Shown here: piece by piece, positions 1 to 17,250 of the stretch
Layout of the letters: each line of letters starts with the position of its first letter
Numbering within the stretch: position 1 is the stretch's first letter
IMG/VR virus record: IMGVR_UViG_2660237951_000012
Span: 1 to 18,756 of that record
DNA length: 18,756 nucleotides
Direction: 5' to 3' (one strand)
DNA from: a virus
Lineage: Duplodnaviria > Heunggongvirae > Uroviricota > Caudoviricetes
The notes under the pieces: generated by a model
Seen by the model: only the letters and a program-made list of their open reading frames with translations
What the model was told of the DNA's origin: nothing
The model's database searches: none
Translations under genes and position numbers: made by a program

Positions 1-413
1 GATCGTATGTGCCTTTATGATTGGTCTGTAGATAGTGTAGAGCAGAAAAGAAAAGGTGGAGTCAGAACAGGATGAAAGTCGGAGGATAAAAAGTCAGTTC
101 AAGTATGGGGGATTCAGTGGTTACCACCAGGAGCTTGCAATGGGAACAGCGAATATTAACGGTAGCCACCGATAAATTTCAAAAAAGAGCATATGCCTAA
201 TATTCAACCAAACAGTGGCATCTTAAATATACTATTCCAAATATATTAAAGTCCCATGGAGTTACCTGGAAAGGGCCTTCATGTCTGTAATTCCTACTTA
301 TGTAGGAAATGTTGTACAGAACATTTATTATAATCCTATTCAAATATAATAATCAGCCATTATTATATTTAAACACTAGAGAGTGTCGTTGGTATTTAAT
401 GGGGAAAGGTGAG

Positions 414-731
414 ATGAAAAAGATAGCTGCTATATCATTAATTAGTATTTTTCTTATGTCTGGTTGTGCTGTGCATAATGATGAGACAAGTATCGGTAAA
501 TTTGGTCTTGCATATAAAAGTAATATTCAGCGTAAACTCGATAACCAATACTACACCGAAGCCGAAGCTTCTTTAGCCAGGGGCAGAATATCTGGTGCAG
601 AAAATATAGTAAAAAATGATGCAGCCCATTTCTGTGTTACTCAGGGCAAAAAAATGCAGATAGTTGACCTGAAGACAGAAGGTGCAGGATTACATGGCGT
701 CGCTCGTCTGACATTCAAATGTGGAGAGTGA
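414..731 (+). CDS. small lipoprotein, 105 aa (host flank)
   Basis: ATG at 414 preceded by AAAGGTGAG Shine-Dalgarno; N-terminus MKKIAAISLISIFLMSGCAV has a signal peptide with LMSGC lipobox. The listed ORF start at 309 is an unsupported upstream extension. Length and position next to the P2 site fit E. coli yegR, but the sequence itself was not recognised. Confidence 0.6.
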   Translation: MKKIAAISLISIFLMSGCAVHNDETSIGKFGLAYKSNIQRKLDNQYYTEAEASLARGRISGAENIVKNDAAHFCVTQGKKMQIVDLKTEGAGLHGVARLTFKCGE

Positions 732-793
732 GAATATTTTTTGGTAAGCGTCAAACATGCGCGTTCTGGTTGTGCTTAGCCGGAACCTGTGCG

Positions 794-826
794 AGCACGA
801 TGCCGTTACGTGAAAGGCATCGTGCT
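794..826. other. perfect 11-bp inverted repeat (AGCACGATGCC / GGCATCGTGCT) with 11-nt loop
   Basis: Seen directly in the sequence downstream of the lipoprotein gene; no T-run follows, so it is not a canonical intrinsic terminator. Confidence 0.4.
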
Positions 827-888
827 ATGAAGGGAGATTCTATCGATGTGGTCAATGGAAGACGGTGGCCAGGGATAGGGCTTATGCA

Positions 889-916
889 TAAAAAATAAGC
901 CCGTGTAAGGGAGATT
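889..916 (+). repeat. attL core of the P2-like prophage
   Basis: TAAAAAATAAGCCCGTGTAAGGGAGATT is repeated exactly at 17223..17250 in direct orientation. It matches the P2 att core as remembered and lies next to the int gene. Confidence 0.85.
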
Positions 917-995
917 TAGGGTGTCACCAGTAGGGGCTTTCAACGGTACAATGCGGGTTTGAGCGGCATAAATTACCACTGAAAGCCCTTAAACG

Positions 996-2009
996 TTACT
1001 CTACTGTGGACACTATGTGGACACTCTCGGCCTCAGTACCACCTCTTAGCGGATTAAGAGAAATGGCGTCCTGAAGGTACTCTGGCGCAAAATGAGCGTA
1101 AACCATAGTTTGCTCAATCCGCGTGTGACCTAGTATCCGTTGTAGCGTGATAATACTTCCTCCATTAATCATGAAATGAGTGGCAAAGCTGTGCCTTAGT
1201 GCATGTGTGGCTTGCCCCATTGGCAAATCCGGTTTTATTGCTTTCATTGTTCGTCTGAAGCGAGGGTAATCAGCATCAGGGAATAAAAAACCTCGTTTGT
1301 TATCCGCGATCATTTTGGCAACAGCCTCTGAGATCGGGACGGTGCGTGGTTTGTTTGTTTTCGTTTTAACAAACGTGACGCGGTTATGGATGATATTTTC
1401 TGCTTTCAAACGAGCTGCTTCTCCCCAACGTGCTCCAGTACTCAGGCAAAGAATCGCAATCTTTTTGTTGTCGCCGTCAAGAGCAGCAAGCAGTAAGGCA
1501 ATTTCTTCCTGCGTGAGATAGCCTGTGTCTGGTTTTTCCTCCTTAAGCCTTTTTGTCCCTCTGATAGGGTGCTCACCAAAGAATAACTCCGCTTCAATCA
1601 GGGCTGTAAACATGCCGCTAATACATGTTAAATCACGATTGATACTCGAAGGTTTAATACCCTGACTTCTTCGGGTGGCGCAGTACTGGCTGATAAGCGA
1701 TTTCGTAATTTGAAATGCGCATGGGTCATTCGTTATTTTTGTGAAGATTTCAATTTTTCCAAGATTAGATTTCCCATGCTCTTCGTGTTTACCCTTTAAA
1801 TCCCACCAGATCTGTGTCAGCTCCGACAGACGTCGCTTGTCTGTTGGTTTTGATAGCCATTCTTTATTGTGGTGGTTGTACAACGTGTATTTCTCGAAAG
1901 CGACAGCTTCGCTTTTCTTATCAAACTTCCTACGGATGCGTTTTCCATTACGTCCAGTAGGGCGGATGTCCACTTCATATCGACCATCATCGAGTTTTTT
2001 GATTGCCAT
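996..2009 (-). CDS. int: P2-type tyrosine integrase
   Basis: 337-aa translation (MAIKKLDDGRYEVDIRPTGRNGKRIRRKF...HALRHSFATHFMINGGSIITLQRILGHTRIEQTMVYAHF) matches remembered P2 Int, with the R...HxxR...Y catalytic signature; adjacent to attL. Confidence 0.95.
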   Translation of the reverse strand: MAIKKLDDGRYEVDIRPTGRNGKRIRRKFDKKSEAVAFEKYTLYNHHNKEWLSKPTDKRRLSELTQIWWDLKGKHEEHGKSNLGKIEIFTKITNDPCAFQITKSLISQYCATRRSQGIKPSSINRDLTCISGMFTALIEAELFFGEHPIRGTKRLKEEKPDTGYLTQEEIALLLAALDGDNKKIAILCLSTGARWGEAARLKAENIIHNRVTFVKTKTNKPRTVPISEAVAKMIADNKRGFLFPDADYPRFRRTMKAIKPDLPMGQATHALRHSFATHFMINGGSIITLQRILGHTRIEQTMVYAHFAPEYLQDAISLNPLRGGTEAESVHIVSTVE

Positions 2010-2124
2010 CAGAAAACCCTCCGAGTGGTGTGTTTTTTTGCGACTACTAATCGCTTTTTTCGTGGTGGCTGAAATTTAGCCACCAATAGTAGGCACTTGT
2101 GATGAATATATTCACGATGAATTG

Positions 2125-2424
2125 TTAACCAGTCTTTTGACCGGAGTGGGGCGACGTTGTTTCGTTTTGCCCAAAGTGTGCGAGAGCGGGCGCAATTTGC
2201 CCGGACTCAGGAGCGATCTGATTGGTCATGAACCATAAAGTGTATTTGGTGAATTGTGGGGTCTGCAGGATGTTCATCATGACATCTGTTGGAGGTGTTG
2301 AACGACCACTTTCATAGTAACTCAGCGTGCCATACGGAACCCCTGTTAAATCAGCAAGTTGTTGTCTGCTCAAATACTCTGATTTTCGCATTAAGACTAT
2401 CTTCTCGCTTATCGTGTTTGACAT
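2125..2424 (-). CDS. C: P2 immunity repressor C
   Basis: 99 aa, MSNTISEKIVLMRKSEYLSRQQLADLTGVPYGTLSYYESG..., helix-turn-helix; divergent from cox as in P2. Confidence 0.9.
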   Translation of the reverse strand: MSNTISEKIVLMRKSEYLSRQQLADLTGVPYGTLSYYESGRSTPPTDVMMNILQTPQFTKYTLWFMTNQIAPESGQIAPALAHFGQNETTSPHSGQKTG

Positions 2425-2538
2425 GGTGTTTAGATCTCAATAGTATTTAGTTTAGATGTAGATTGTTTAGTGCTTGGATGTGGGCACTAAAAGGCATTAT
2501 AAGACATTAAACGCAATTCATGAGGGCTAGAGGACGAC
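2425..2538. promoter_or_regulatory. C/cox immunity switch region with operator direct repeats
   Basis: Direct 8-bp repeats GTTTAGAT at 2428..2435 and 2450..2457 (22 bp apart) plus further TTTAG/TAGAT copies between the divergent C and cox starts, consistent with the P2 C operator layout. Confidence 0.55.
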
Positions 2539-2814
2539 ATGAGCAAGCAAGTAACACTCATGACTGATGCGATTCCTTATCAGGAGTTCGCAAAACTAAT
2601 AGGAAAATCGACAGGAGCGGTTCGTCGGATGATTGATAAAGGAAAGCTGCCTGTAATTGATATGACCGATCCACAATCAGCTTCAGGTCGTGCAGGTGAA
2701 TATTGGGTATACCTTCCGGCATGGAATAACGGACTAAAACTGGCTTATGAAAGCCGCCCTAAAGAGATTCGTGACGGCTGGTTGATGTGGTTGTGCCTTT
2801 ATGACAGTGGATGA
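2539..2814 (+). CDS. cox: P2 Cox (excision and lytic-switch regulator)
   Basis: 91 aa, MSKQVTLMTDAIPYQEFAKLIGKSTGAVRRMIDKGKLPVIDMTDPQSASGRAGEYWVYLPAWNNGLKLAYESRPKEIRDGW; the last codons may be altered by the adjacent rearrangement junction. Confidence 0.88.
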   Translation: MSKQVTLMTDAIPYQEFAKLIGKSTGAVRRMIDKGKLPVIDMTDPQSASGRAGEYWVYLPAWNNGLKLAYESRPKEIRDGWLMWLCLYDSG

Positions 2815-3040
2815 AATACGCATCGCGGATAACGGCGCGTTTTGTCGCTTCCGGCCACTTTTCATCCCACCTGTCGACCGAAAACGCCCACGCCAGCCAC
2901 GGCAGCAGATTTGCCGGACAGGTGTCCGGGTTCCACAGCTCACGAATACTGACCGGCGTTTTTTCAATTTCCGCACAGGCTTTTGCGGCGGCGACCTCAA
3001 GCGGTGATGAGCCGGTCGGCAGCAGTCGCGAATCACTCAT
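2795..3040 (-). pseudogene. I: tail protein I, N-terminal fragment (3' end lost at junction with cox)
   Basis: MSDSRLLPTGSSPLEVAAAKACAEIEKTPVSIRELWNPDTCPANLLPWLAWAFSVDRWDEKW...HCHKGT matches remembered P2 gpI up to about residue 82, then diverges and terminates. Inverted relative to canonical prophage order. Confidence 0.7.
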
Positions 3041-3359
3041 CCGAGCCTCCGGTCACGACGCGGTATTCGGTACAGAAAGACGCCTGCGTACTGTTGAGCA
3101 CGATGTCGGCCAGTGGTGCAGCCAGTTCGACACGCTGCACACCTTCCACATGCAAAGCGGCATAAATGGCAGACAGACGGATGTCGCGCCCCAGCCGGTG
3201 CTGTGCCGTGATATACGCTTCCAGCTTTTTCACAGCGGCAGCGCGGATGGGTTCGCTTTCGGGACCAGGGTAAAGGTAAAGCGTGGCGTTTATCTGGTAT
3301 TCAACGATGGCGGCAGACTGCACGGTCAGCCGGTCTTCAAAACGCTTAAACTCATTCAT
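3033..3359 (-). pseudogene. J: baseplate protein J, C-terminal portion (108-aa ORF)
   Basis: Sits immediately upstream of I with an ATGAGTGA start/stop overlap, as J does in P2; C-terminus ...TEYRVVTGGSDE. P2 J is about 302 aa, so only the C-terminal third is present. Identity rests on gene order plus partial recollection. Confidence 0.55.
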
Positions 3360-3740
3360 CCCACTTACTCACCAGTTCGCCATTGATATAAAGCTCCATC
3401 GGGCGGGTGACCGGCTCCGGCGGCGGAGGTTCCGGGATATTCTTCACATGCAGCGCACCGTCAACCTCACTGACCAGCGTGCGCTCGGTCAGCATCAGGC
3501 TGATGCTGATATCAAAGCTGCTGTCATTGTTGATGTCCGCATAAAACGTGAAGCCCTTTTTCTGGCCTTCGTCGGTGGTCATGATGTCGGGCTGATTTTC
3601 CCGCAGCCACGCCAGCACCGGCACGATGAGCAGGTCAAAATCACCGGTAAAGTCGGTCACAATGACATTGAGCGTGTAACGCTTTTCGAATGACAGCGAC
3701 GTCGCCAGTGTGGAGGCAATACTCCCGTTATCCGTCGTGG
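3352..3740 (-). pseudogene. C-terminal fragment of an unresolved P2-like late (virion morphogenesis) protein
   Basis: Protein-like sequence ...TDFTGDFDLLIVPVLAWLRENQPDIMTTDEGQKKGFTFYADINNDSSFDISISLMLTERTL...MELYINGELVSKWDE ending in an ATGAATGA overlap with the downstream ORF. The N-terminal 50 residues of the listed ORF are Gly/Ala-rich and look like antisense of the P fragment. Family not identified. Confidence 0.35.
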
Positions 3741-3963
3741 CTGTCTGGAATATGACGTCAGCGCCACCGACATCACCAGCTCGTTTATGGCTATCCGCAA
3801 GACCATGACCAGCAGCGGACGCAGTGCCACCTATGAGGCCAGCCGCAGCGAGGAAGCCAGCCACGCCGACCTCGCCTGGGCGACCATGCACGCCCTGTTA
3901 AATGAGCCACTCACCGCCGGTATCAGCACCCCGCTGACATCCACCATTCTGGAGTTTTACTGA
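3741..3963 (+). pseudogene. P: terminase large subunit P, C-terminal remnant
   Basis: The frame ending in TGATG overlap with the Q start codon translates to ...MAIRKTMTSSGRSATYEASRSEEASHADLAWATMHALLNEPLTAGISTPLTSTILEFY. P precedes Q in the P2 P-Q operon; only about 70 codons remain (an internal ATG at 3787 would give 58 aa). Confidence 0.4.
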
Positions 3964-4997
3964 TGAGCAAGAAAAAAGGGAAAACACCGCAACCTGCGGC
4001 AAAAAAAATGACCGCCAGCGCCCCGAAAATGGAGGCATTCACCTTTGGTGAGCCGGTGCCGGTACTCGACCGCCGTGACATTCTGGATTACGTCGAGTGC
4101 ATCAGTAACGGCAGATGGTATGAGCCACCGGTCAGCTTTACCGGTCTGGCAAAAAGCCTGCGTGCTGCCGTGCATCACAGCTCACCGATTTACGTCAAAC
4201 GCAATATTCTGGCCTCGACATTTATCCCGCATCCGTGGCTTTCCCAGCAGGATTTCAGCCGCTTTGTACTGGATTTTCTGGTGTTCGGTAATGCGTTTCT
4301 GGAAAAGCGTTACAGCACCACCGGTAAGGTCATCAGACTGGAAACCTCACCGGCAAAATATACCCGCCGTGGTGTGGAAGAGGATGTTTACTGGTGGGTG
4401 CCGTCCTTCAACGAGCCGACAGCCTTCACGCCCGGCTCCGTGTTTCACCTGCTGGAGCCGGATATTAATCAGGAGTTGTACGGCCTGCCGGAATATCTCA
4501 GCGCCCTTAATTCTGCCTGGCTGAATGAGTCGGCCACGCTGTTCCGCCGAAAGTATTACGAAAATGGCGCTCATGCCGGATACATTATGTACGTCACCGA
4601 TGCCGTGCAGGATCGCAACGATATCGAAATGCTTCGCGAAAACATGGTTAAGTCGAAAGGCCGCAACAACTTTAAAAATCTGTTTCTCTATGCCCCACAG
4701 GGGAAAGCCGACGGCATCAAAATTATCCCGCTCAGTGAAGTGGCAACGAAGGACGATTTTTTTAATATCAAAAAAGCCAGCGCCGCAGACCTGCTGGACG
4801 CACACCGCGTCCCCTTTCAGTTGATGGGCGGCAAGCCGGAGAATGTCGGGTCACTGGGTGATATTGAGAAAGTGGCAAAAGTATTCGTGCGAAATGAACT
4901 TACTCCACTCCAAAACCGGCTCAGTGAGGTCAATCATTGGGTAGGAGAATCAGTAATATGTTTTAAAAATTACAAACTTAGCGATGAGGATTATTAG
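3963..4997 (+). CDS. Q: portal protein Q
   Basis: 344 aa, MSKKKGKTPQPAAKKMTASAPKMEAFTFGEPVPVLDRRDILDYVECISNGRWYEPPVSF... matches remembered P2 gpQ at the same length. Orientation is inverted relative to int/C/cox. Confidence 0.92.
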   Translation: MSKKKGKTPQPAAKKMTASAPKMEAFTFGEPVPVLDRRDILDYVECISNGRWYEPPVSFTGLAKSLRAAVHHSSPIYVKRNILASTFIPHPWLSQQDFSRFVLDFLVFGNAFLEKRYSTTGKVIRLETSPAKYTRRGVEEDVYWWVPSFNEPTAFTPGSVFHLLEPDINQELYGLPEYLSALNSAWLNESATLFRRKYYENGAHAGYIMYVTDAVQDRNDIEMLRENMVKSKGRNNFKNLFLYAPQGKADGIKIIPLSEVATKDDFFNIKKASAADLLDAHRVPFQLMGGKPENVGSLGDIEKVAKVFVRNELTPLQNRLSEVNHWVGESVICFKNYKLSDEDY

Positions 4998-5002
4998 CCT
5001 AT

Positions 5003-5029
5003 AAAAAAGGCCGCAGAGCGGCCTTTTTT
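5003..5029. terminator. bidirectional intrinsic terminator between convergent Q and the 835-aa gene
   Basis: A6-GGCCGC-aga-GCGGCC-T6: GC stem flanked by an A-run and a T-run, so it can terminate on both strands. Confidence 0.7.
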
Positions 5030-5030
5030 A

Positions 5031-7505
5031 TTATACCTTTGTAATATGCTTTAATATTTCAATCACTTTAGCAACATATGATTGACTTACGCCGCCATCT
5101 CCTTCATATTCAGATATTTTATTTAAAGACTGTTTACATGCTTCCATATATTTAACTTTATTACTCTTCGATAGCTTATTGTAATTTGACAAATGAAAAT
5201 CTTTATATCTCGAAAACTGCCTCAGAGAGTAAATATCCACATCCAAATTACTAAGAAGGTTGTTTGCCTTTTCGAAATTAGAGAATACAATATTACCATC
5301 TGGTATCTTTTCGCTTGAAAGCAAATATATTTTTGCTTGCTGGGTATCAATATTGTTCGTGTGATATTTTGCTCGCTTTTCAGCTAACGCATATGCCTGG
5401 TCAATATACTGTTGTGCTTTTGGGTAATTTTTGTAAGCAATAAAACACATTGCGTATTGCAACCAGAAGTGTGGGTTTGAATTTAGCCATGGAACTTCAA
5501 TTTTTAACTTTTCATAATATCGTTGTAGCGTTGATATTTTCATACTTTCAGGAAGCAGCTGCTCAACAAAAGAAAACCTGAGCATAGCTTTAAATATTCT
5601 ATCCTGTTCATAATCCTTAGAGTTTAATTGATTAAACCTTGATGCAATAGTAAGCATTCGCTCTATAATAACAGTAGGAGTGAAATTATTTTTTATTAGA
5701 TGTATGCAAAATAAACTAGACCCGTTAATGATCCTACCGCCATGGAAATTAAATATTGCCTTAAACGCACTGTTATTAGTAAAATCCGGATCATAAATCA
5801 AATCATTGCCTGCAAGATCAGATATAATCCCTCGATTCGTTTCAATGCCAAGTATTTGACAAAGACAAATTGAAATAATTGTGTTTTCATGACTCTTACT
5901 CTTTTTAATCCCGGTAATTAAATCACTTATCTTATTTTTTATTTGCGGCGACTCCAAAAGAGTAAGCAATGCAATTGAGAATTGACTGTTATTCTCATTA
6001 GCTAAATATCTTACCTTTTGCTCTACACTAAGCCCTGCATTATCTCCCCAAAGACCTAAGTTATCTATTATTTTTGAAAAATCTTTTAACTCTACCTCAT
6101 CTAACATATCAATATTTATTTCAGAATATTTGAATTTTATGCGCTCCAAATCATCTCTGTGATATTCATGATCTGCAACACGGGCAGTAGCAAGTATTAG
6201 TACATTTTCGTAAGCAGCTCTGCCCACATGTTCCATTAATTCAAGATTCTTCTCATACCCATCAAGTAATATGATATTTTTCATGGATGATTGTGCTATA
6301 TAGTCAATATCTGATATAAAATCACCATCTATATCGGCCACTGTATAAACATCATAACCACCGACGGATAAAACACTCCTTAGCTCTTTCAATAAGATGG
6401 TTTTTCCGTTTCCAAGCGCCGAATAAATAATTACATTTTTTGATTGTTCAATTAATGAAACAGCTTTATCAATTTCACTTCTTTTTACTAAAAACGGTAC
6501 CTTAGTATTACCAAGTATAAAATTATCAATATGATGATCATCCAAATCACCATACATCAACATTTTTTCAACCTCTTCATCTCTAATAGAACTTGATTCA
6601 TTGGTTATATCATGAAGAAAAAGTGACTGTAGCTTATACTCCTGCTCTTCTGATACTGAAGTAATATTATCTCTTATTCTATTGGCAAAACCACTCAAAC
6701 CTATAGGCAAAACGGTACCGAATTTTTCTAGAGTAAATTCTAATTCGATATCAGGATTGAGACTAGTTACAAAAAATGTTTTTTCTTTTAATTGAGGTAA
6801 GGTAGAAAGGATTTTTTTTATTTCAATATCATACATTGAATAACCGATAAAAACGATCGCGCCACACCTATCTAAATCTCTTTTAAAATAATAGAACCAT
6901 TCAGAGTCAGTAAAAGAGTCAGGGCTTGAATAAGATGAATCAGAAAGTTTGAATGAATCATCAAGCGTTTCAGTAGAAATATTATTAATTGAACCATTAA
7001 GATGAATACATAAATTCTTGCGCTTATAATATTCCTTTGTTTTATGCTCAAGATCTATAGTTTCGAATTTATTACCGGATGATTCAGCTGCGATCTCAAA
7101 ACATCGGTCATAATTAGTTGTGTAACAACGTTTCCATGGTAGCGATGCGATTATATTTTGGTTCTCCGATGTTGTTTTTATAGAATAATTATAAATTAAT
7201 AGTTCTATTAATTTTAATGACGAGTTTTTTGCTAAGTAATAATCAGAAGAAAAGCGTAGGTTATCATTTTTAGGTATTGAACAAAGACCACATAATATAT
7301 GAGATAGCTCTATTGAAGAAGAAGGATTAGTATCATTAATATTCGTAGCTTCTTTAGAGAAACCCGCCCCCAAAAACAACATTGCCTTTCCAGAACAAAT
7401 ATTTGTAACTAGTTTAGCATAATCAATAGTTTGCTTGCTAATAATCAACTCTGTAAAATTAATATCCATTATAAAACCTATCATATAAATTAAGTGGGAT
7501 TTCAT
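5031..7505 (-). CDS. SIR2-like domain / P-loop NTPase / TPR-like repeat protein, candidate anti-phage defence
   Basis: The N-terminus carries the SIR2-type motif set LFLGAGFS, TTNYD, IHLNGS and VFIGYSMYD. The middle has a Walker A-like YSALGNGKT, Walker B-like NIILLDGYE and LILATAR. The C-terminus is helical and repeat-like. The listed ORF starts on TTG at 7538; ATG at 7505 (or 7469) is more likely. Strongly AT-rich by eye. Confidence 0.8.
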   Translation of the reverse strand: MKSHLIYMIGFIMDINFTELIISKQTIDYAKLVTNICSGKAMLFLGAGFSKEATNINDTNPSSSIELSHILCGLCSIPKNDNLRFSSDYYLAKNSSLKLIELLIYNYSIKTTSENQNIIASLPWKRCYTTNYDRCFEIAAESSGNKFETIDLEHKTKEYYKRKNLCIHLNGSINNISTETLDDSFKLSDSSYSSPDSFTDSEWFYYFKRDLDRCGAIVFIGYSMYDIEIKKILSTLPQLKEKTFFVTSLNPDIELEFTLEKFGTVLPIGLSGFANRIRDNITSVSEEQEYKLQSLFLHDITNESSSIRDEEVEKMLMYGDLDDHHIDNFILGNTKVPFLVKRSEIDKAVSLIEQSKNVIIYSALGNGKTILLKELRSVLSVGGYDVYTVADIDGDFISDIDYIAQSSMKNIILLDGYEKNLELMEHVGRAAYENVLILATARVADHEYHRDDLERIKFKYSEINIDMLDEVELKDFSKIIDNLGLWGDNAGLSVEQKVRYLANENNSQFSIALLTLLESPQIKNKISDLITGIKKSKSHENTIISICLCQILGIETNRGIISDLAGNDLIYDPDFTNNSAFKAIFNFHGGRIINGSSLFCIHLIKNNFTPTVIIERMLTIASRFNQLNSKDYEQDRIFKAMLRFSFVEQLLPESMKISTLQRYYEKLKIEVPWLNSNPHFWLQYAMCFIAYKNYPKAQQYIDQAYALAEKRAKYHTNNIDTQQAKIYLLSSEKIPDGNIVFSNFEKANNLLSNLDVDIYSLRQFSRYKDFHLSNYNKLSKSNKVKYMEACKQSLNKISEYEGDGGVSQSYVAKVIEILKHITKV

Positions 7506-7566
7506 AGTTAGTTCATTTCTGAACACAAAGCAAGTCAATAGCCATAATAAAATCTTTAACGCGCAG

Positions 7567-7585
7567 TGCTTTCCCCGCCTCGCCC
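7567..7585 (-). other. P2 cos site (19-nt cohesive end)
   Basis: Minus strand reads GGCGAGGCGGGGAAAGCAC, a 19/19 match to the P2 cohesive end as remembered; orientation agrees with the inverted segment. Confidence 0.8.
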
Positions 7586-8154
7586 GCCCGCTTCATGTGG
7601 CGGTTTTAATGCAGTTGCATAGATACTATGGATCCGCACCAGCTCTGACCGCGAGCAGCTGGAACGGGCATCCCCGACGCATGCAAAAACATTCACTTGT
7701 TGCATGCACGGCTTATTTAATGACAAATCAACTTAAGCGTCACCGCAGCTCCCACAAAAAAACGTAACACCATGATTTTAGTGATATTTATGACTTTTTT
7801 AATTGCTTATTTAAGTCCGCCATATTGAAACCGTGCATTTTTTAGCCACCAATAACTTTAAAAAATTTACATTGCTTTCAATACCTTATCATCCGTAGTC
7901 CCTGCTTTTTACTTTGAGCTATATCAAAAAAAGCTCAAACATCCTTGATGCAAAACCAGTATTACACAACATAAAATGCAACCAGAAACAACGACATACT
8001 ATATGTTGTGTTGTTCAGGCTCTCTGTTCGGTGATATGCCAGATCACTTTGCGTTTAAACAGAGCATTATTTCAGGGCAAGACTTCGCTAAATAGTAACT
8101 CCGCCTCAGAAGCGCATATATCGGCGGAAATTGCCCTCTGCTTACAGGAGGAGA

Positions 8155-8268
8155 TATGAAGAAGTGCTATTACTGCATTCTCGTTCTGGCCCTCTTTGGC
8201 TATCCATATGGTAGTCCAAGTGGTTTGTCAGTAAACGTCAGTAATATCCATGTAAGTATTATTCTTTA
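8155..8268 (+). CDS. hypothetical 37-aa hydrophobic peptide
   Basis: ATG preceded by strong AGGAGG Shine-Dalgarno at 7-nt spacing; MKKCYYCILVLALFGYPYGSPSGLSVNVSNIHVSIIL; followed by a hairpin with T-run. No recognisable homology. Confidence 0.35.
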
Positions 8269-8282
8269 GTATGCTTCAAACA

Positions 8283-8311
8283 AAAAAACCACCTGCCAGG
8301 GTGGTTTTTTT
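8283..8311 (+). terminator. putative intrinsic terminator
   Basis: AAAAAAACCACCTGCCAGGGTGGTTTTTTT: CCACC/GGTGG stem followed by a T7 run. Confidence 0.5.
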
Positions 8312-8571
8312 GCGCCTGTCATCATTCCGATGAAAGACTAGCAAGACTTCGCTCGAGATGAATTATGCTTCGACAAAAGGTCACTCGCAATGGTTTTATT
8401 AGCCGAAATAGATGCTCTTTTATGACTCGAATCAAATAGCTGCCTTAAATTACATGCTAGCGATTCAATACAATTTAGCCTTCTACTTCAGCATGCTATT
8501 GCTCCTCATCTGCATTAGAGGCGCTTCGCATAATCCATTCAAAGGCATATAAAATCACGCTGCATTTTTAC

Positions 8572-10848
8572 TCAAATGGGTAACAAAAATCCAGGCCACT
8601 CATCAGCGACCTGATAATTGAAATATTTCCCGTAATAATTTACGGTCGCGCCACGCGCCAGCGCCTCAAGCTCCCATCGCTGCGGCCTGATACCGTTCTG
8701 AGCAAGGTCAACGCGGATACGGGTAATTTGCATTCTTTCCGACCGGGTCAGTCTGGCCGATGGTGCAATTTCATGTGGTTTTAACGGGCTTCCGTTTCTT
8801 TGCTGACGATTTGGTGTTCTCAGGTCGTGTTTTAATGCCCCCCTGAGCGCCCTCACGACCTCCGTGTCATTCCATTCGATAACACCGTCATCAACCAGAT
8901 TAAGCACGGCTGCGGCGTGTTCAGAAGGTGTGGGAGCCGGTAACGAAGTATCACCACCGGTGAGCTTTCCACAGTTATTGACAGGACTCCGAGGCGCGGC
9001 GATGCCGCTTTTTAAAGTCAAAGGCTCAACGACCGGCACTTTCGGAACAATGCGCCAGTCCGTCGTTCTGGTGATATGAATATGACGCGCGCCGAGATGC
9101 GGCGCGTAAATGCCGACCACTCTCTCGACTTCTTCCTCGTACTCGTTAACGTCATCCGACGGGCTACGGGCGACCCTGACAGTCTGACAATCGCGCGGGA
9201 CATTTGCCCCGCCCTGCGCGCTGATATACAACGCAAAATCACCACTGTCTGCAGCGGCGCGTGCAGCCTCGACGCGCTCGTCAAACTCATCAGCAATGCT
9301 GACGCCGCGAGGCAATTTGCGTAGTTCACGGTAAGCCCCCATTGTCGGCAGACCAACCGTTTTAAATTGCGGAATGCGCCACGTTGACGCCCATGCGGTA
9401 ACAGCAGCAGCTGTGTCTTTCAGCGGCCTACCGGTATCATTATCGAGCTGACCATCCAGTGCATAGCCGTCGATGTTTTTTGAGATGTATTTCGCGATAT
9501 ATCCCGCAGCACCGCCCCGGTTAAGGTGTTTTGCCTGAAAACGGTTTCGCGCGGCTCCTCTTTCGTCGCCATCCTCTTTGAGCGCATAGCGACGCATGAT
9601 TTCAATAATCTGGTTACGCTGGCGTGGATTACAAAAAAGCATCATATGCCAGTGCGGCGTTCCGTCGTGGTGTGGTTCAACAACACGCAAACCGTAGGCC
9701 TGTAAATCATTATCCTTGAATGCCGTGCGCATCAGGCTCCAGATACGGCAGAGATAACGCTGCGCATCCTTTGGATTAAATGCCTCATCGTTCCAGCCGT
9801 GATTTAGCTGGACGGTTTTACTTTCGCCTTTTCTGACCTGACGTGTCGGGTGATACTTTGACGGCGCGGTCAGCGTGATAAACATCCCCACATCACCCTC
9901 TGCGGCGGCGTAACGCTCAATACCGGCGATGGTGTTCATCAGCTCCATCCGGCGAATTTCTGGATTAGAAATACTGCCCATCACCTTACTGATAAGGTCG
10001 ATGCGCTCGCCGGTTTCCTTGTTTTCAAGGTCACACGATTTAAGAAATTCCAGATTTGCCTGGCGGCGCGCACGCACATCACGAATGGCATGTTTACTGG
10101 CATAAGGAGAACGGTCTTTATTGACCTCCCCGACAGCAATCAGTAACGCCTCATGCCAGCGCATACGCTGGCCTTTAAGCTGATGAGTCCACCACTCATC
10201 GTTAAACAGGCGGGCAATGGCAGAATATGCCTGCCTCGTGGTCATCTGCCCTTTACGGTATTTTTTCCAGTAAAGCGGGGAAATATTGAAAGCACGTGCA
10301 GCGCCAGCAACATGACCATACAGATGTGCCTGCGCCTCATCCGTAAACAGCGATTCTTTTTCGCCATGCGCATCCACCCAGGCATCGCAGAGTTCCTCAT
10401 ACATCATGAAAAGCTGCGATGAGATACGGGCAGCAAACTTTTTCAGCTCCTTGTCATTCATTCCCGGCAGGCGCGCATAGTGGTCACGCTCTGCCAGAAA
10501 CAGCAACGACGCGTCGGTGTTCATTTCATGGCGCTGATTCACACGCTCAATGCGCGGCCATAAACGACGCTGAAAAGTGGATGTGAGGAAATAAAACCCG
10601 TGCACCGGGCTTTTATTGCGCCGGATGTAGTCATAGCGTGAAGTAAACAGCGAGCGCAAAAAGTAAGGCAGGCGGTTAATCGTGGATAAAACACCTTGCA
10701 CCTGACGCATCTCGTCACGTGTAAGGGGTCTTTCGCGCCCGACAGCCTCGCGTGGCGCGTTCCATGCATAAGCACCGGTAAACGCCTTACCGGTGCCTGC
10801 GGCAAATGCTGACGGAGGGACAAAACGCCCGGAGGCTTTAACGGCCAT
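8572..10848 (-). CDS. A: replication initiation endonuclease A (rolling-circle initiator)
   Basis: Matches remembered P2 gpA across its length (MAVKASGRFVPPSAFAAGTGK...HWHMMLFCNPRQ...YIAKYISKNIDGY). The listed ORF begins 14 codons upstream at 10890; the internal ATG at 10848 corresponds to the P2 start. Confidence 0.9.
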   Translation of the reverse strand: MAVKASGRFVPPSAFAAGTGKAFTGAYAWNAPREAVGRERPLTRDEMRQVQGVLSTINRLPYFLRSLFTSRYDYIRRNKSPVHGFYFLTSTFQRRLWPRIERVNQRHEMNTDASLLFLAERDHYARLPGMNDKELKKFAARISSQLFMMYEELCDAWVDAHGEKESLFTDEAQAHLYGHVAGAARAFNISPLYWKKYRKGQMTTRQAYSAIARLFNDEWWTHQLKGQRMRWHEALLIAVGEVNKDRSPYASKHAIRDVRARRQANLEFLKSCDLENKETGERIDLISKVMGSISNPEIRRMELMNTIAGIERYAAAEGDVGMFITLTAPSKYHPTRQVRKGESKTVQLNHGWNDEAFNPKDAQRYLCRIWSLMRTAFKDNDLQAYGLRVVEPHHDGTPHWHMMLFCNPRQRNQIIEIMRRYALKEDGDERGAARNRFQAKHLNRGGAAGYIAKYISKNIDGYALDGQLDNDTGRPLKDTAAAVTAWASTWRIPQFKTVGLPTMGAYRELRKLPRGVSIADEFDERVEAARAAADSGDFALYISAQGGANVPRDCQTVRVARSPSDDVNEYEEEVERVVGIYAPHLGARHIHITRTTDWRIVPKVPVVEPLTLKSGIAAPRSPVNNCGKLTGGDTSLPAPTPSEHAAAVLNLVDDGVIEWNDTEVVRALRGALKHDLRTPNRQQRNGSPLKPHEIAPSARLTRSERMQITRIRVDLAQNGIRPQRWELEALARGATVNYYGKYFNYQVADEWPGFLLPI

Positions 10849-11113
10849 ATGAGCCAAAAGCCTCTGAACAACGCTTGCTGAGTTGCTCAACCTGCGCGTT
10901 TAAATCAGCAAAAGACTTTGCGCTTCCGGTCAGAATATCGTGATGCATCAGGCCGGAAACGAGCTGGCTTAATTTCGGGTAATAACCAACCACCGCCAGC
11001 CATTCCTGACCGGCGTTTTTACCGCTTTCCGCTCTCTTTTTCTCGTGGAGAATAAACTGAAAGCTGTCACTGGTAACGACATAACGTTCGCCAATTTCAA
11101 TACGAATACTCAT
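10838..11113 (-). CDS. small P2 early-region protein upstream of A (orf83-like)
   Basis: 91 aa with GGAG Shine-Dalgarno 6 nt upstream of the ATG; its stop overlaps the A start. Position matches the small ORFs that precede A in P2; function unknown. Confidence 0.5.
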   Translation of the reverse strand: MSIRIEIGERYVVTSDSFQFILHEKKRAESGKNAGQEWLAVVGYYPKLSQLVSGLMHHDILTGSAKSFADLNAQVEQLSKRCSEAFGSYGR

Positions 11114-11188
11114 GCCGTTCTCCGGTAATGTTTGTTTTTTGCTTCAAAGACTGACTGGCAGGAAACACAACGCGTGGCTGACGGATAA

Positions 11189-12784
11189 GCCGCACGACGG
11201 GCACAGGACGCCACCACAGCACGAAAAGGCCTTGTCCAGCTCAGTAGTGCCACCAACAGCACGTCTGAAACGCTCGCTGCAACACCAAAAGCGGTAAAAG
11301 CAGCATATGACCTTGCTAACGGGAAATATACCGCACAGGACGCCACCACAGCGCGAAAAGGCCTTGTCCAGCTCAGTAGCGCCACCAACAGCGATTCTGA
11401 AACGCTTGCGGCAACACCAAAGGCGGTTAAGACAGCGTATGACCTTGCTAACGGGAAATACACTGCACAGGATGCCACTACAGCGCGAAAAGGTCTTGTC
11501 CAGCTCAGTAGCGCCACCAACAGTGATTCTGAAACGCTGGCCGCAACACCAAAAGCGGTGAGGTCTGCCTATGACAATGCTGAAAAACGTCTTCAGAAAG
11601 ATCAGAACGGTGCGGATATTCCGGGAAAGGATACCTTCACGAAAAATATCGGTGCCTGTCGTGCTTATAGCGGCGCTTTGAGCACTGAAGCCGGAAACTG
11701 GACAACCGCGCAGTTTATTGACTGGCTAGAGTCTCAGGGAGCCTTTAATCATCCCTACTGGATGTGCAAGTGTTCCTGGTCATACGGTAATAACAAAATT
11801 ATTACCGATACTGACTGTGGGACTATTCATCTTGCAGGTTGCGTGATTGAGGTTATGGGCGTTAAAGCAGCAATGACCATTCGTGTGACCACTCCGAGTA
11901 CATCAAGCGGTGGTGGTACCACCAGTGCGCAATTCACGTATATCAATCACGGAGCTGATTATGCGCCGGGCTGGCGACGCGACTACAATACGAAAAATAA
12001 GCAACCGGCTTTTGCATTAGGGAAAACAGGAAATACGGTTGCAAATAATAAAGCGGTAGGATGGAACTGGGACAGTGGTGCTTATTGTGCACAGGATGGC
12101 GGAGCATCAAAAATGGTGCTGCATTTTTACACGGGTGAGGGAAGTTGTCCGGCAATGCAGTTTCTTGTGGATTATAAAAACAGGGGGATTTTTTACAGGT
12201 CGGCACGTGATGGGTATGGATTTGAGGCTGACTGGTCAGAGTTTTATACAACATCACGAAAGCCAACACCTGCGGATATTCTTGCTCTGGCATTATCAGG
12301 CGGAAGCATGTCAGGCAGCATAAAATTTATCAATGATGCCTTCCTGATTTGGGAAAGAAACACTGACTGGGCGAAAATTGGATTTAAAAATGATTCAGAT
12401 GCTGATTCTGACTCATACATGTGGTTTGAAACTGGTGATAATGGCAATGAATATTTTAAATGGCGCATCAGGTCTGGCAGCACAACAAAAGATCTGATGA
12501 CGCTTAAGTCTGATGCACTACGGGTTACCGGGCAGGTGATACCATCAAATTTCAGCAATTTTGACTCCCGCTATGTCCGGGATCTCCGACTTGGTGGTGC
12601 AGCCACATACAAACCTGCGAACAATGGCATGACATGGACACATCAGGCACCGTCCGGGTGTGTATATACCGGCATTATTGTTCAGGATACCGGCTCAAAC
12701 TCTGCCGATAACATTGGTGGCGTATATTACAGACCGGTTCAGAAATACATTAACGGGACATGGTACAACGTGGCGCAGGTATAA
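11189..12784 (+). pseudogene. H: tail fibre protein H, 5'-truncated
   Basis: The frame is open from the stop at 11186 with no ATG, GTG or TTG before the GTG at 11558. It encodes the H repeat region, the conserved WERNTDWAKIGFKNDSDADSDSYMWFETGDNGNEYFKWR block and the C-terminus RPVQKYINGTWYNVAQV. The roughly 200 N-terminal residues of P2 H are absent. Confidence 0.8.
11201..11575 (+). repeat. tandem 132-bp repeats (about 2.8 copies) in the tail-fibre H gene
   Basis: The unit encoding AYDLANGKYTAQDATTARKGLVQLSSATNS(D/T)SETLAATPKAVKT recurs with period 132 nt (TATGACCTTGCTAACGGGAAATA at 11306 and 11438). It generates the spurious ORFs 11110..11520(-) and 11307..11561(+). Confidence 0.85.
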
Positions 12785-12787
12785 TTT

Positions 12788-13315
12788 ATGCAGCATTTGA
12801 TAAATATAACGGCAGGTAATCCAAAAACGGTTGAACAATATCAATTGACAAAGGACTTTGATGTTGTCTGGTTTTTTACAGAAGATGGTAAGAACTGGTA
12901 CGAAGAACAAAAGTATTTTGCTGATGACACGATAAAAATAGCGTACGACAAAGATAATATTATCCGCTATGTAGAAAAGGATGTGACAGCTATCAGACCG
13001 GATGGATTAAGTGTTGTTGAAGTGCCGGATATTACTGCTAACCGACGGGCGGACATTTCAGGGAACTGGATGTTTAAGGACGGCAAAGTGATTAAACGCA
13101 TTTATACGGCAGAGGAATTACAACAGCAGGCAGAAATTCGGAAAGCCAGACTTCTTGCAGATGCTGAATCCGTGATTTTGCCGCTGGAGCGCGCTGTCAG
13201 GCTGAACATGGCAACAGAGGAGGAGCGCACACGGCTGGAGGCTTGGGAACGCTACAGCGTTTTGGTCAGTCGTGTGGATCCTGCAAATCCTGAATGGCCG
13301 GAAATGCCGCAATAA
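12788..13315 (+). CDS. G: tail fibre assembly protein G
   Basis: 175 aa, [40 protein letters not shown]...[14 protein letters not shown] matches remembered P2 gpG. Confidence 0.9.
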
Positions 13316-13348
13316 GTTGTATAAGCTCTGGTGTGAGATTACATATCT

Positions 13349-13392
13349 ATGGCACAGAGTAAAGCCTAATCTGGCAGTCCGCTCTGTGCCAT
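13349..13392. other. 11-bp perfect inverted repeat (ATGGCACAGAG / CTCTGTGCCAT) with 22-nt loop
   Basis: Seen directly, just downstream of G at the boundary of the AT-rich cargo island. Confidence 0.4.
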
Positions 13393-13510
13393 TACCGGAC
13401 ATACTGAGCAGAAGGCTAAAAAGGACGCTTTCAGGACATATAGCAAGGGAGCAAGGATGAAAGAATTAACCAAGTATATTTAATGTTTCAATCATGATAG
13501 TTTCTGAATT

Positions 13511-13533
13511 AAAGGGGGCTACCCACCCCCTTT
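13511..13533 (-). terminator. putative hairpin terminator downstream of the 92-aa gene
   Basis: AAAGGGGG-ctaccca-CCCCCTTT stem-loop immediately after the stop at 13536; flanking T-run is weak. Confidence 0.4.
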
Positions 13534-13535
13534 AA

Positions 13536-13814
13536 TTACTTGTTCCACTCAGTCAGAATTTGGTTACTAACTTCATCTGAGAGATTGTACCAATAAGCTG
13601 AGTTATTGGTTGCGTCTACAACAATAAGCTTATCATCACTATCCATGACCGCCCTCACAATTTTGGCTGCATCCTCGGCAGAGTAACTACAGTTAACATA
13701 CCAGTTCGATTCAGTTGTTAAAGCCCAATTTCCTAAAGATTTAATTGCATCATACACAGCCGCATAATCTTTCGTTTTAATGAGGTCGTAAGTAATAAAT
13801 AAATTATTAGCCAT
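13536..13814 (-). CDS. hypothetical 92-aa protein (Z/fun-position cargo)
   Basis: ATG with GGGAG Shine-Dalgarno 8 nt upstream; MANNLFITYDLIKTKDYAAVYDAIKSLGNWALTTESNWYV...; no homology recognised. Confidence 0.6.
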   Translation of the reverse strand: MANNLFITYDLIKTKDYAAVYDAIKSLGNWALTTESNWYVNCSYSAEDAAKIVRAVMDSDDKLIVVDATNNSAYWYNLSDEVSNQILTEWNK

Positions 13815-13840
13815 AAATCATCTCCCAAAGGACAAAGAAA

Positions 13841-13866
13841 AAAGCGCCTAGAAAGGCGCTCATATA
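13841..13866 (-). terminator. intrinsic terminator between the DUF3606-like gene and the 92-aa gene
   Basis: Minus strand reads AGCGCC-tttcta-GGCGCT followed by TTTTTTCTTT, lying between the stop at 13867 and the next Shine-Dalgarno. Confidence 0.6.
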
Positions 13867-14046
13867 TTAATGGTCTTTAAGCCATGCCTGTACTTTCTTA
13901 GCCGAATGACCTACAGCCTGTACGGCTTGAACAAGTTTGGCCTCGCTAACTCCAAACTTTTCAGCCCAATCACGTCTCTCGTAATCCTGTTTGATACTTA
14001 TTAAATCATTGTCAGGGGTACCGATTTTGGTCTTATCATCAGCCAT
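13867..14046 (-). CDS. DUF3606-like small protein
   Basis: MADDKTKIGTPDNDLISIKQDYERRDWAEKFGVSEAKLVQAVQAVGHSAKKVQAWLKDH with GAGGA Shine-Dalgarno upstream of this ATG; the listed ORF extends to 14085. The motif pattern resembles the DUF3606 family from memory. Confidence 0.55.
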   Translation of the reverse strand: MADDKTKIGTPDNDLISIKQDYERRDWAEKFGVSEAKLVQAVQAVGHSAKKVQAWLKDH

Positions 14047-14537
14047 TTTACTGATTCCTCGTGATACAGGCTTATACCTGCCCATTAGTTATATGGCTCC
14101 CGTGCTGCTTCGTAAACGTTCAATAATCAAACAATTGACACTGATCATAAAACCAGTTATAGGATTTGACTCTAGCTTGGATATATGATGATGCCACCCC
14201 CTTTATATTGTTGTCGGTAACTCACAGACATTGAACTCATGCTGGTGAGTGAAAGGCTACATAAACGCCCAACATTTAAACTGCCCTCAGCAGCGTTCGC
14301 GGAGCAATATACAGGCTTCGTATTCAATCCTTGCCCTACGAGAAACCCTAGCCGTTGCCTCGTTTTCAAGTGTCAGGAAGTTCTTTGTCAGACCTCATAC
14401 AGTCTTGGGCTGGGTGAGGTGCATGGGGGAAGTTGAAGCCTTAACTGTTGAGGTAAATCGAACCATAAGTGTGCAATTTTTCAAGCCCGGCGCTATTTTA
14501 GTATTGAAAACAATTAGTACGCCCCCAAGGACAACTC

Positions 14538-15230
14538 ATGATCGAATTTATCGCAGAGCATATAAACACAGTAAGTACACTTATCTCCGCTTTGGCAGCA
14601 TTGCTAACAGCAGTTGCTACATTTTTCTTGTGGAGAGTAACAAGGCTATTAGCAGACGAGACAAAAAGGATGGTTGACGCATCAGTTCAACCTCATGTCG
14701 TTGTGACTCTTGAACCAAATTCTTGGGCTGCTTTTTATTTTGATATCAATATTGCTAATACCGGAAATGCCCCAGCCTATGATATTGAAGTCGGATTTAA
14801 TCCCCCACTGGTTAATGCAGAACATAGAAAAAATGAAGGTATACCATTTAGCAAGGTTAGCGTATTGAAAAACGGCCATTCCCTTAACAGCAGTCTTTGT
14901 AAGTATGACCAGATTAAAGATCAAGTTTATTCTGTTAGTATTAGCTGGTCTAAACAGCCGGGCTCAACTGAAAGAGAGCGGAATGAGTATTCTTATGATA
15001 TGGCTTCTTTCGAGGGGGTTAGCTACTTAGGTGCAAGGAGTCCAATGACACAGATAGCTGAGCAGATGAAAAAGATTAGAGAAGACTGGAGGCCGATTTC
15101 CCAGGGAAGCAAAAAAATTAAAACAGACAACTATAATTCAAGTGACAGAGCCGAGGAACAACGAGCACGTGAAGAGTGGTATCAGACCACTGCAAAGAAA
15201 TGGGATAAAGAAAAGCAAAAAGATAACTAA
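14538..15230 (+). CDS. hypothetical 230-aa membrane-anchored protein (Z/fun-position cargo)
   Basis: AAGGA Shine-Dalgarno 7 nt upstream; one N-terminal transmembrane helix (TLISALAALLTAVATFFLW), a central domain and a Lys/Glu-rich C-terminal tail; followed by a terminator. No homology recognised. Confidence 0.7.
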   Translation: MIEFIAEHINTVSTLISALAALLTAVATFFLWRVTRLLADETKRMVDASVQPHVVVTLEPNSWAAFYFDINIANTGNAPAYDIEVGFNPPLVNAEHRKNEGIPFSKVSVLKNGHSLNSSLCKYDQIKDQVYSVSISWSKQPGSTERERNEYSYDMASFEGVSYLGARSPMTQIAEQMKKIREDWRPISQGSKKIKTDNYNSSDRAEEQRAREEWYQTTAKKWDKEKQKDN

Positions 15231-15360
15231 TACAATTGACCTGCTCCCCATAAATTAGCATACCACAATCTCAGGTCCGCTCTTCGCTCAAAACAGGCTG
15301 TCAGATTTGACAGAATTTTGGTTACGTAATTTGTCAGTTGGAAACAGAGAGAGTACAAAT

Positions 15361-15395
15361 CAAGGCAGGCAAGCTGATTGCCCGCCTTTTCTTTA
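15361..15395 (+). terminator. putative intrinsic terminator after the 230-aa gene
   Basis: AAGGCAGGC...GCCCGCCTT imperfect stem (one mismatch) followed by TTTTCTTTATCTGTTGTTT. Confidence 0.5.
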
Positions 15396-15490
15396 TCTGT
15401 TGTTTCATCCACTGACCAGCCAGGTCAAATAGCGTCTCATGCACTGCCCAACAGAAAATAGTTGCACCCATTAACCACGGAGTTAAACGG

Positions 15491-15658
15491 ATGAGTGACT
15501 ATCATCATGGCGTGCAGGTGCTGGAGATTAACGACGGCACCCGCGTGGATGAATCACTGGCCGCGCTTTATGGCGATATCGGTAAACAGGCGGAGTCGCT
15601 CATCGGTAAGGCTGGCAGTATGGCGACCAGATTCACGGGTATGACGGGGGCGGGATAA
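15491..15658 (+). pseudogene. in-frame fusion remnant: tail sheath FI N-terminus joined to tail protein U C-terminus
   Basis: The 55-aa ORF starts MSDYHHGVQVLEIN (remembered FI start) and ends ...SMATRFTGMTGAG with a TAATG overlap onto D, which is the natural U/D junction. Implies deletion of FI, FII, E, T and most of U. Confidence 0.55.
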
Positions 15659-16821: not shown

Positions 16822-16902
16822 TGTTTTTATTTTATCTGTTTGTTTTATAAGGATAAATTAACTAAAATAACACCATCAACAAAACCGGAAGAGGTGCTCG
16901 CG

Positions 16903-17121: not shown

Positions 17122-17132
17122 TTACAAACAGA

Positions 17133-17159
17133 AAGCCCCTCAGTTGAGGGGCTTTTTTT
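17133..17159 (+). terminator. intrinsic terminator of ogr
   Basis: AGCCCCTCA-gt-TGAGGGGCT perfect stem followed by T7. Confidence 0.8.
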
Positions 17160-17222
17160 GTCGATGTGGTCAATGTGTGGACGTGACCAGAAATAAATCC
17201 TTTTATTTCATTGTATTACGCG

Positions 17223-17250
17223 TAAAAAATAAGCCCGTGTAAGGGAGATT
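17223..17250 (+). repeat. attR core of the P2-like prophage
   Basis: Exact copy of 889..916; overlaps the 3' terminator end of cyaR on the opposite strand. Confidence 0.85.

Follow-up and report, generated by a model that had tools for sequence, protein, structure and literature searches.

A module of about 600 bp, situated beside replication gene A in a P2-like prophage of Escherichia coli, is probably a type I toxin-antitoxin-like system composed of a small hydrophobic peptide and an antisense small RNA (sRNA). It occupies positions 7863 to 8460 of the window, that is, of the whole stretch of DNA analysed here (18,756 nucleotides (nt); positions 1 to 18,756 of IMG/VR virus record IMGVR_UViG_2660237951_000012). 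At its centre is a 37-codon open reading frame (ORF), which a first-pass annotation of the window had picked out as a small hydrophobic peptide gene resembling type I toxins. There is little doubt that this ORF is a real coding gene for a small membrane-type peptide, and the sRNA predicted on the opposite strand very likely exists. At the sequence level, the module has two features expected of type I systems, namely a coding gene for a hydrophobic peptide of fewer than 60 amino acids (aa) and an adjacent predicted sRNA gene complementary to its messenger RNA (mRNA). The proposed resemblance to type I toxins is thus supported by the architecture and evolution of the module, the label not resting on function. 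The components of the module are as follows.

7863..8460, no strand assigned: mobile module of ~600 bp, common to P2-like prophages and to plasmid and other contexts
7949..7977, plus strand: putative mRNA promoter, with −35 TGCAAA (7949-7954), 17-nt spacer and −10 TAAAAT (7972-7977)
7985..8155, plus strand: structured 5' untranslated region (5'UTR) of the mRNA, ~171 nt
8022-8064, plus strand: long hairpin of the 5'UTR (hairpin A)
between hairpins A and C, plus strand: small 5'UTR hairpin, whose loop displays UCGCUCAA, the 3' half of the target site
8076..8089, plus strand: mRNA target site GGCAAGACTTCGCT, the upstream repeat copy, 66-79 nt before the ATG
8099-8128, plus strand: hairpin C of the 5'UTR, with compensatory changes
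8131-8139, plus strand: segment UUGCCCUCU, complementary to the Shine-Dalgarno (SD) sequence (anti-SD segment)
8146-8151, plus strand: SD sequence AGGAGG
8156..8269, plus strand: 37-codon ORF, candidate toxin gene, with ATG start, TAG stop and a 37-aa product MKKCYYCILVLALFGYPYGSPSGLSVNVSNIHVSIIL
8281..8312, both strands: bidirectional intrinsic terminator CAAAAAAACCACC-TGCCAG-GGTGGTTTTTTTG, predicted to serve the peptide mRNA (plus) and the sRNA (minus)
8281..8355, minus strand: predicted antisense sRNA, candidate antitoxin, ~73-75 nt, with 5' seed (N)GAGCGAAGUCUUGC, middle hairpin and terminator hairpin
8341..8353, minus strand: downstream repeat copy, the 5' seed of the sRNA, complementary to mRNA 8077-8089
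8362..8402, minus strand: predicted sRNA promoter, with −10 CATAAT (8367..8362), 17-nt spacer, −35 TTGCGA (8390..8385) and UP-like block
~8394-8402, minus strand: A/T-rich UP-like block TAATAAAA, invariant

Evidence that the ORF is coding comes from 78 homologous loci that were fetched, the first alignment of which (MAFFT) comprised 39 distinct modules. The unit is far beyond chance, because it is conserved as a unit across these loci. Absence or disruption of the ORF in homologues, which the first-pass annotation had named as an observation that would count against the gene, was not encountered: the ORF is intact at 78 of 78 loci, down to 59% peptide identity. It is 37 codons long at 76 loci and 38 at the other two (the L078/L079 lineage), a length that is fixed although indels occur directly after the stop codon. 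The 39 distinct modules contain 19 different ORF sequences encoding 14 different peptides, with 19, 13 and 29 variable sites at codon positions 1, 2 and 3 respectively. The ratio of nonsynonymous to synonymous substitutions (dN/dS; NG86) is 0.09-0.41 in 26 of the 28 pairs formed by eight divergent representatives, synonymous change being saturated in the other two, and the analogous ratio of proportions (pN/pS) is 0.35 in frame, compared with 1.35 and 1.16 in the two shifted frames, a clear mark of purifying selection. The 37 codons and ATG described earlier are present, though the start codon lies at 8156 and not one position before it (8155). The AGGAGG likewise stands, whereas its spacing, described as ideal, is 4 nt (AGAT) and slightly below the textbook optimum; the same 4-nt spacing is retained in every homologue. 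The hairpin and T-run reported after the ORF begin 11 nt past the stop codon (8281-8312).

In the peptide, a basic N-terminus precedes a hydrophobic core of 13 residues, which is followed by a Pro/Gly hinge (GYPxGS) and an uncharged tail rich in Ser, Asn and Val. Its hydrophobic N-terminus, also part of the earlier description, is apparent from a mean Kyte-Doolittle value of 1.95 for residues 4-16, with two Lys and zero acidic residues, and the grand average of hydropathy is 0.91. Invariant residues comprise C7, the ILVL core, G15-Y16-P17, G/D19, S22 and G/N23. Five protein-database entries (P0001, P0003, P0004, P0009 and P0010) are mostly artefacts or variants of this peptide, including a stop-loss form of 68 aa, a disrupted form of 71 aa and calls of 73-88 aa extended upstream through the 5'UTR, which shows that gene callers mishandle the locus; stop-loss and disrupted forms are rare in these databases. 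An 81-aa ORF with a TTG start (7914-8159, plus strand) overlaps the structured 5'UTR and ends where the 37-aa ORF begins; it is suspected to be spurious, because the region that it covers carries conserved RNA-structure signals.

The opposite strand was inspected for an antisense RNA, as the first-pass annotation had proposed, and a convergent sRNA gene is strongly predicted there. The terminator that it would share with the peptide mRNA has perfect 13-nt arms, a 6-nt loop and flanking A- and T-runs, folds at −19.1 kcal/mol (z = −3.97) and is nearly invariant in all modules. A consensus terminator scanner did not list 8281-8312, a miss attributed to A-run/T-run pairing being counted as stem. 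The whole predicted sRNA folds at −29.5 kcal/mol (z = −4.33). The middle hairpin is unrelated in sequence between clades, yet folds in all of them, and an RNAalifold consensus contains four pairs with compensatory changes. Owing to G-U pairs, all 18 distinct variants of this hairpin are more stable when read as the minus strand (means of −8.5 and, for the other strand, −4.3 kcal/mol). The sRNA promoter was picked up by a promoter scan of the window and leaves a clear footprint across 17 distinct sequences from the 78 loci, with mean identities of 1.00 for the −10 element, 0.95 for the −35 element and 0.66 for the spacer, which is always 17 nt long despite its divergence. The sRNA would start at ~8355, exactly at the repeat complement, and end at the common terminator. 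As far as sequence alone can indicate, the promoter footprint, the covarying and strand-biased hairpin and the overall fold are together the signatures of a real minus-strand sRNA gene. Beyond the sRNA promoter lies a further conserved block (8403-8435; TTTTATGACTCGAATCAA) that is common to prophage and plasmid versions and might either bind a regulator or belong to the boundary of the module.

The two predicted transcripts are linked by a 13-nt exact direct repeat, GCAAGACTTCGCT, which flanks the ORF at 8077-8089 and 8341-8353 and has only these two copies in the whole window; a 13-nt exact repeat arose in 22 of 5000 module shuffles (0.4%). By virtue of the repeat, the 5' end of the sRNA is complementary to 13-18 nt of the 5'UTR located 63-79 nt before the ATG, giving a core duplex of 14-17 bp (mRNA −79..−63). 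Only this core duplex is meaningful, as RNAduplex applied to whole UTRs produced huge interior loops with energies barely better than those of shuffles. Every change seen in either partner keeps the pairing; the number of events is modest, but all of them agree. The mRNA carries A→G opposite an sRNA U in L044, L058 and L067 and C→U opposite an sRNA G in L078, the sRNA carries C→U opposite an mRNA G in L006, L042 and L044, and both sides are altered to A-U in L077. One seed-target position passes from G-C through G-U to A-U across lineages.

The mRNA likely starts at ~7985, downstream of a promoter whose footprint across 16 distinct sequences has mean identities of 1.00 (−35), 0.94 (−10) and 0.75 (spacer), the −10 element being TA(A/G)AAT across homologues. 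No LexA box was evident by eye in the mRNA promoter region, of which no formal scan was made. The RNAalifold consensus of the 5'UTR from nine divergent sequences contains 27 pairs, of which three show compensatory changes, and in it the SD (GGAGGC) is paired to an upstream GCC.CC. The anti-SD segment can alternatively pair with the 5' flank of the target site, and this alternative helix covaries: P2-type modules have GGGCAA/UUGCCC, plasmid types have GGUGGCA/UGCCGCC or GGUGGCA/UGCCACC, and L077 has GGUGACA/UGUCACC. The two helices are of similar order in energy, with −11 to −13 kcal/mol for target flank:anti-SD and −7 to −13 kcal/mol for anti-SD:SD. In L077, a change at one mRNA position is matched in the anti-SD segment as well as in the sRNA, which indicates that the latter two compete for the same nucleotides.

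These features suggest a mechanism in which a plus-strand mRNA of ~325 nt (from ~7985 to 8312) would encode the 37-aa peptide, whose N-terminus, either signal-peptide-like or a short membrane anchor, may by analogy insert in the inner membrane and be harmful in quantity. The convergent sRNA of ~73 nt (8355→8281) would be transcribed from its own sigma-70 promoter, end at the terminator held in common with the mRNA and pair through its 5' end with the 5'UTR 63-79 nt before the start codon (8076-8089 in the window); the predicted terminator hairpins of the two RNAs are also mutually complementary. The mRNA motif GGCA, which the 3' part of the sRNA seed would bind, is predicted to partner the anti-SD segment upstream of the SD as well. 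Binding of the sRNA would then displace the anti-SD segment, leaving it to close the ribosome-binding site (RBS). Displacement is favoured as the repression mode because GGCA is common to both pairings, and it appears the most likely mode; blocking of a standby site or cleavage of the duplex by RNase III may also operate, jointly or instead, and would be equally possible as the switch.

Several observations weigh against a type I toxin controlled in this manner. At ~13 residues, the hydrophobic core is shorter than the helices with which most type I toxins span the membrane and nearer to a secretion signal, and AlphaFold run on the single sequence gave a helix-break-helix of middling confidence (predicted local distance difference test score of 70), which is weak evidence. 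The −35 element of the mRNA promoter, although invariant, is a poor match to the consensus. The window allele has a weak SD hairpin (−6.3 kcal/mol, z = 0.24; −7.3 for anti-SD:SD) and an sRNA-mRNA duplex of only 13 Watson-Crick pairs and one G-U pair. When the target was blocked in silico by forcing it to be unpaired, SD accessibility did not change consistently, being ~0.2 unpaired either way in most variants; the switch step is consequently without support from the thermodynamic model and is a hypothesis based only on covariation. The module was also absent from the whole sequence of plasmid pKPN3 of Klebsiella pneumoniae MGH 78578, which makes the published differential RNA sequencing of that strain uninformative for it.

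The window allele, shared with about eight other loci, has A in place of C at 8090 and 8152. These substitutions shorten the duplex to 13+1 bp and weaken anti-SD:SD pairing (−7.3 compared with approximately −12 kcal/mol in relatives), and the allele may be a 'leakier' variant.

Similarity among the 39 distinct modules fades outside approximately 7863-8460, and BLAST of the window against a Klebsiella-type plasmid locus (L005) aligned 7863-8435 at 73% identity. Of 5426 complete E. coli genomes, 152 carry a 231-bp core of the module, with identities of 90-100%. At each E. coli prophage locus fetched, this core lies ~270 bp past the end of gene A, and the cargo on its far side varies (SIR2, an AAA ATPase pair, an ImmA/IrrE set or hypothetical pairs). 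Among the first 75 loci, 49 adjoin gpA and 26 do not. A tblastn search placed the peptide on ~392 large plasmids, mostly conjugative, with Klebsiella accounting for 390 of the 406 matching records (IncF plasmids); further carriers are an Enterobacter plasmid, a Citrobacter contig, and IMG/VR and metagenome contigs. Other neighbours of the module include an N15-type protelomerase gene (phage-plasmid), TacA/GNAT toxin-antitoxin genes and secretin genes, and on the Klebsiella-type plasmid L005 it lies 1.2 kb from dinQ. Judged by this distribution, 7863-8460 appears to be a self-contained and horizontally mobile unit. Annotation has largely passed it by: the ORF is annotated in a single phage record, as a hypothetical protein, and never in the plasmid copies, and the Prokaryotic Genome Annotation Pipeline annotates dinQ and hok in neighbouring regions, never the 37-codon ORF.

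Two side observations arose from these loci. The non-phage copies (L005, 3736-3873; L067, 59-855; L044, 65-1150; L077/L078) sit beside addiction or mobile-element genes, these being dinQ, a TacA/GNAT (TacT-like) pair, the N15-type protelomerase gene, and secretin genes accompanied by small ORFs. Numerous E. coli chromosomes labelled 'complete' (e.g. NZ_CP062865.1 and NZ_CP029180.1; L007 and L008) begin exactly at the gpA start codon, which is why the module is always found at record positions 2519-2749 in them; apparently, these assemblies had been rotated to start from the replication gene of P2 rather than from dnaA.

Within the window, a P2-like prophage of E. coli, the position of the module is defined by the following landmarks.

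3963-4997, plus strand: portal gene
7566-7584, minus strand: P2 cos 19-mer GGCGAGGCGGGGAAAGCAC, exact match, 0 expected by chance
8572-10890, minus strand: gene A, replication endonuclease

The 19-mer is presumably the cohesive-end sequence of P2, and BLAST to the annotated P2 cosR backs the match, in agreement with the earlier placement of the ORF near cos. The AT-rich noncoding setting described for it also holds: ~1.1 kb is without RefSeq annotation and has a G+C content of 0.33-0.45, compared with 0.52-0.57 in gene A. The cos-proximal accessory and defence hotspot of P2-like phages is located between gpA and gpQ (PMC9122126). The 37-codon ORF, which lies between gene A and cos, falls within this hotspot, in which P2 itself carries orf91, tin and old. 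An 812-aa SIR2-family gene (5031-7469, minus strand) lies between the portal gene and cos, across cos from the usual position of P2 cargo. Its product has weak similarity to the SIR2 domain of ThsA (E = 1e-11, residues 19-227), and the gene probably serves in defence, as a stand-alone or uncharacterised gene. Directly outside the integrase end of the prophage is a CyaR sRNA gene (17227-17312, minus strand; Rfam 100.7 bits), the 3' end of which is presumably the known attachment site of P2-like phages. The module might help to retain the prophage or plasmid that carries it, or it might act in abortive infection as part of the P2 defence hotspot. In P2-like contexts, the 3'UTR of read-through transcripts from gene A would include the antitoxin sequence, and it may be speculated that these transcripts neutralise the toxin mRNA while the phage grows lytically.

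The peptide may instead be a non-toxic small membrane or exported protein tuned by an antisense sRNA, making the module a regulated accessory gene; it might exclude superinfection or entry, modulate a membrane protein or, once a signal sequence has been cleaved off, be secreted as a short peptide. Its Sec-like N-terminus, in which a basic n-region and an h-region of 13 residues precede a Pro/Gly break and then small residues, would suit such a function, exclusion genes are common in the P2 accessory and defence hotspot, and purifying selection indicates function, not toxicity. This explanation is nonetheless considered unlikely, given that multi-layer RNA control, a dedicated cis antisense RNA and SD pairing are hallmarks of genes that are kept silent, and that movement of a ~600-bp unit among prophages, IncF plasmids and a protelomerase-linked element, beside other toxin-antitoxin loci, is typical behaviour of addiction modules.

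Two further explanations fare less well. Both transcripts are strongly structured and conserved, and the terminator and repeat are conserved even beyond the ORF, as would be expected if the RNAs themselves regulated or sponged other targets, with an ORF that is incidental or tolerated. However, frame-specific substitutions, a fixed length and conservation of the SD and the start codon while peptide identity ranges over 59-100% demand translation, and no further seed-complementary site occurs within the window, making an RNA-only function very improbable. A leader-peptide transcription attenuator, or a chance ORF beside the gene A terminator, would draw on the sub-threshold Rfam matches to Phe_leader and RNAI, all of them driven by the terminator (26 bits, against gathering scores of 55 and 47), and on the location of the terminator downstream of gene A in P2-like contexts. 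No co-oriented gene follows the terminator in any context, though, gene A being convergent and the plasmid neighbours unrelated or on the opposite strand, and a chance origin is excluded by the coding signature and module-wide conservation. The probability left to either version is minimal, and the analyses of context and coding effectively refute both. The preferred explanation of the module is a type I toxin-antitoxin-like system.

Searches with two variants of the peptide (window and plasmid) matched zero Pfam or NCBIfam families at E ≤ 10. In Rfam, CyaR alone passed the gathering score in the window, and the region at E ≤ 5 and the plasmid homologue gave sub-threshold, terminator-driven matches. 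A protein-database search with a 41-aa padded query returned only three entries, and an exhaustive HMMER search returned eight matches, of which six are family members (several of them mis-extended by gene callers) and two are longer proteins with weak partial matches. Full-text literature searches brought up neither the peptide nor the repeat, and no type I system of P2-like phages or of plasmids from Klebsiella. No such locus is mentioned in a paper applying RIL-seq (ligation and sequencing of interacting RNAs) to hypervirulent K. pneumoniae, nor is the module mentioned in two large surveys of the P2 hotspot (including PMC9122126). Within the limits of these database and literature searches, the family is undescribed.

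If the proposed reading is correct, it would add a new family to the few type I toxin-antitoxin systems of enterobacteria, one that is carried by ~3% of complete E. coli genomes and by hundreds of Klebsiella IncF plasmids of clinical importance, but invisible to current annotation. The P2 defence hotspot would then also contain a toxin under RNA control; as the hotspot surveys catalogued protein-coding systems only, their 'empty' 1.1-kb gap beside gene A would not be empty. The three-way covariation between mRNA target, anti-SD segment and sRNA provides a testable model for the shut-off of an RBS by an sRNA bound 70 nt upstream.

Among enterobacterial systems, tisB/istR-1, zorO/orzO, dinQ/agrB and shoB/ohsC each combine a short hydrophobic peptide and a long structured 5'UTR with an sRNA site far upstream of the RBS, and RBS-sequestering structure is common among these toxin mRNAs. 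The module resembles them in its structured 5'UTR and in the short sRNA complementarity upstream of the RBS. Their sRNAs, however, are divergent and encoded upstream, whereas that of the module is convergent. Hok, Ldr, Ibs, TisB, ShoB, DinQ and ZorO gave no Pfam or NCBIfam match at E ≤ 10 with the window and plasmid peptides.

By gene arrangement, the closest known system is par (Fst/RNA I-RNA II) of the Enterococcus faecalis plasmid pAD1. This locus has convergent promoters, a common bidirectional terminator that makes the terminator stem-loops of the two RNAs complementary to each other, oppositely transcribed direct repeats that add a second complementary region, and an SD-sequestering stem (PMC7472228), a layout that recurs in the module, and par-like loci are likewise carried by plasmids and phages. 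They have been described in Gram-positive bacteria, whereas the module is enterobacterial; if the proposed reading holds, a par-like convergent, terminator-sharing layout would extend to Gram-negatives, of which no example was found in the literature surveyed. The two also differ in detail. In par, two repeats (DRa and DRb) lie over the translation initiation region, compared with a single 13-18-nt repeat in the module, with its target at −79..−66 from the ATG. The module peptide is without the charged C-terminal tail and PXXXG motif of the Fst/Ldr signature, which further comprises a transmembrane helix and a conserved Trp, and without a Pfam Fst or Ldr match, and the module sRNA is ~73 nt long with an extra covarying hairpin, compared with ~40 nt for RNA II.

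By peptide type and control logic, the module is closest to timP/TimR, at the ryfA locus of Salmonella and E. coli (PMC7667032; PMC13000454). Both encode small enterobacterial peptides (38-41 aa) with a signal-like hydrophobic N-terminus and a polar tail rich in Ser and Asn. The N-terminal motifs are MKIRCFCIVLIV in the module and MKKCYYCILVLA and MNRLCLCILVLT in TimP, with CxCI[VL][LV] in common, which is suggestive, although the sequences are too short for significance; hhalign aligned the module peptide to TimP over residues 1-11 only, with a probability of 8%. The Rfam ryfA family (RF00126) matched neither the window at the gathering score nor the region at E ≤ 5, and the plasmid variant likewise gave no match. 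The gene for TimR lies upstream and is divergent, whereas the module sRNA is downstream, convergent and terminator-sharing; upstream of the module ORF, the alignment contains no conserved terminator or complementary copy. timP further differs in having a weak SD and a fixed chromosomal locus, compared with the consensus SD and mobile elements of the module. The sRNA site is similarly placed in the two, at −78..−61 from the start codon in timP of K-12 and −79..−66 in the module. In timP, alternative pairings within the 5'UTR control translation by opening or closing the SD (PMC13000454), and by analogy the competing helices of the module suggest a timP-like control logic. Tentatively, the module may thus represent a mobile type I family that serves as an abortive-infection or retention device in the P2 hotspot, is exchanged among phages, phage-plasmids and IncF plasmids, operates as a three-partner RNA switch and unites, in enterobacteria, a par-type layout with timP-type logic.

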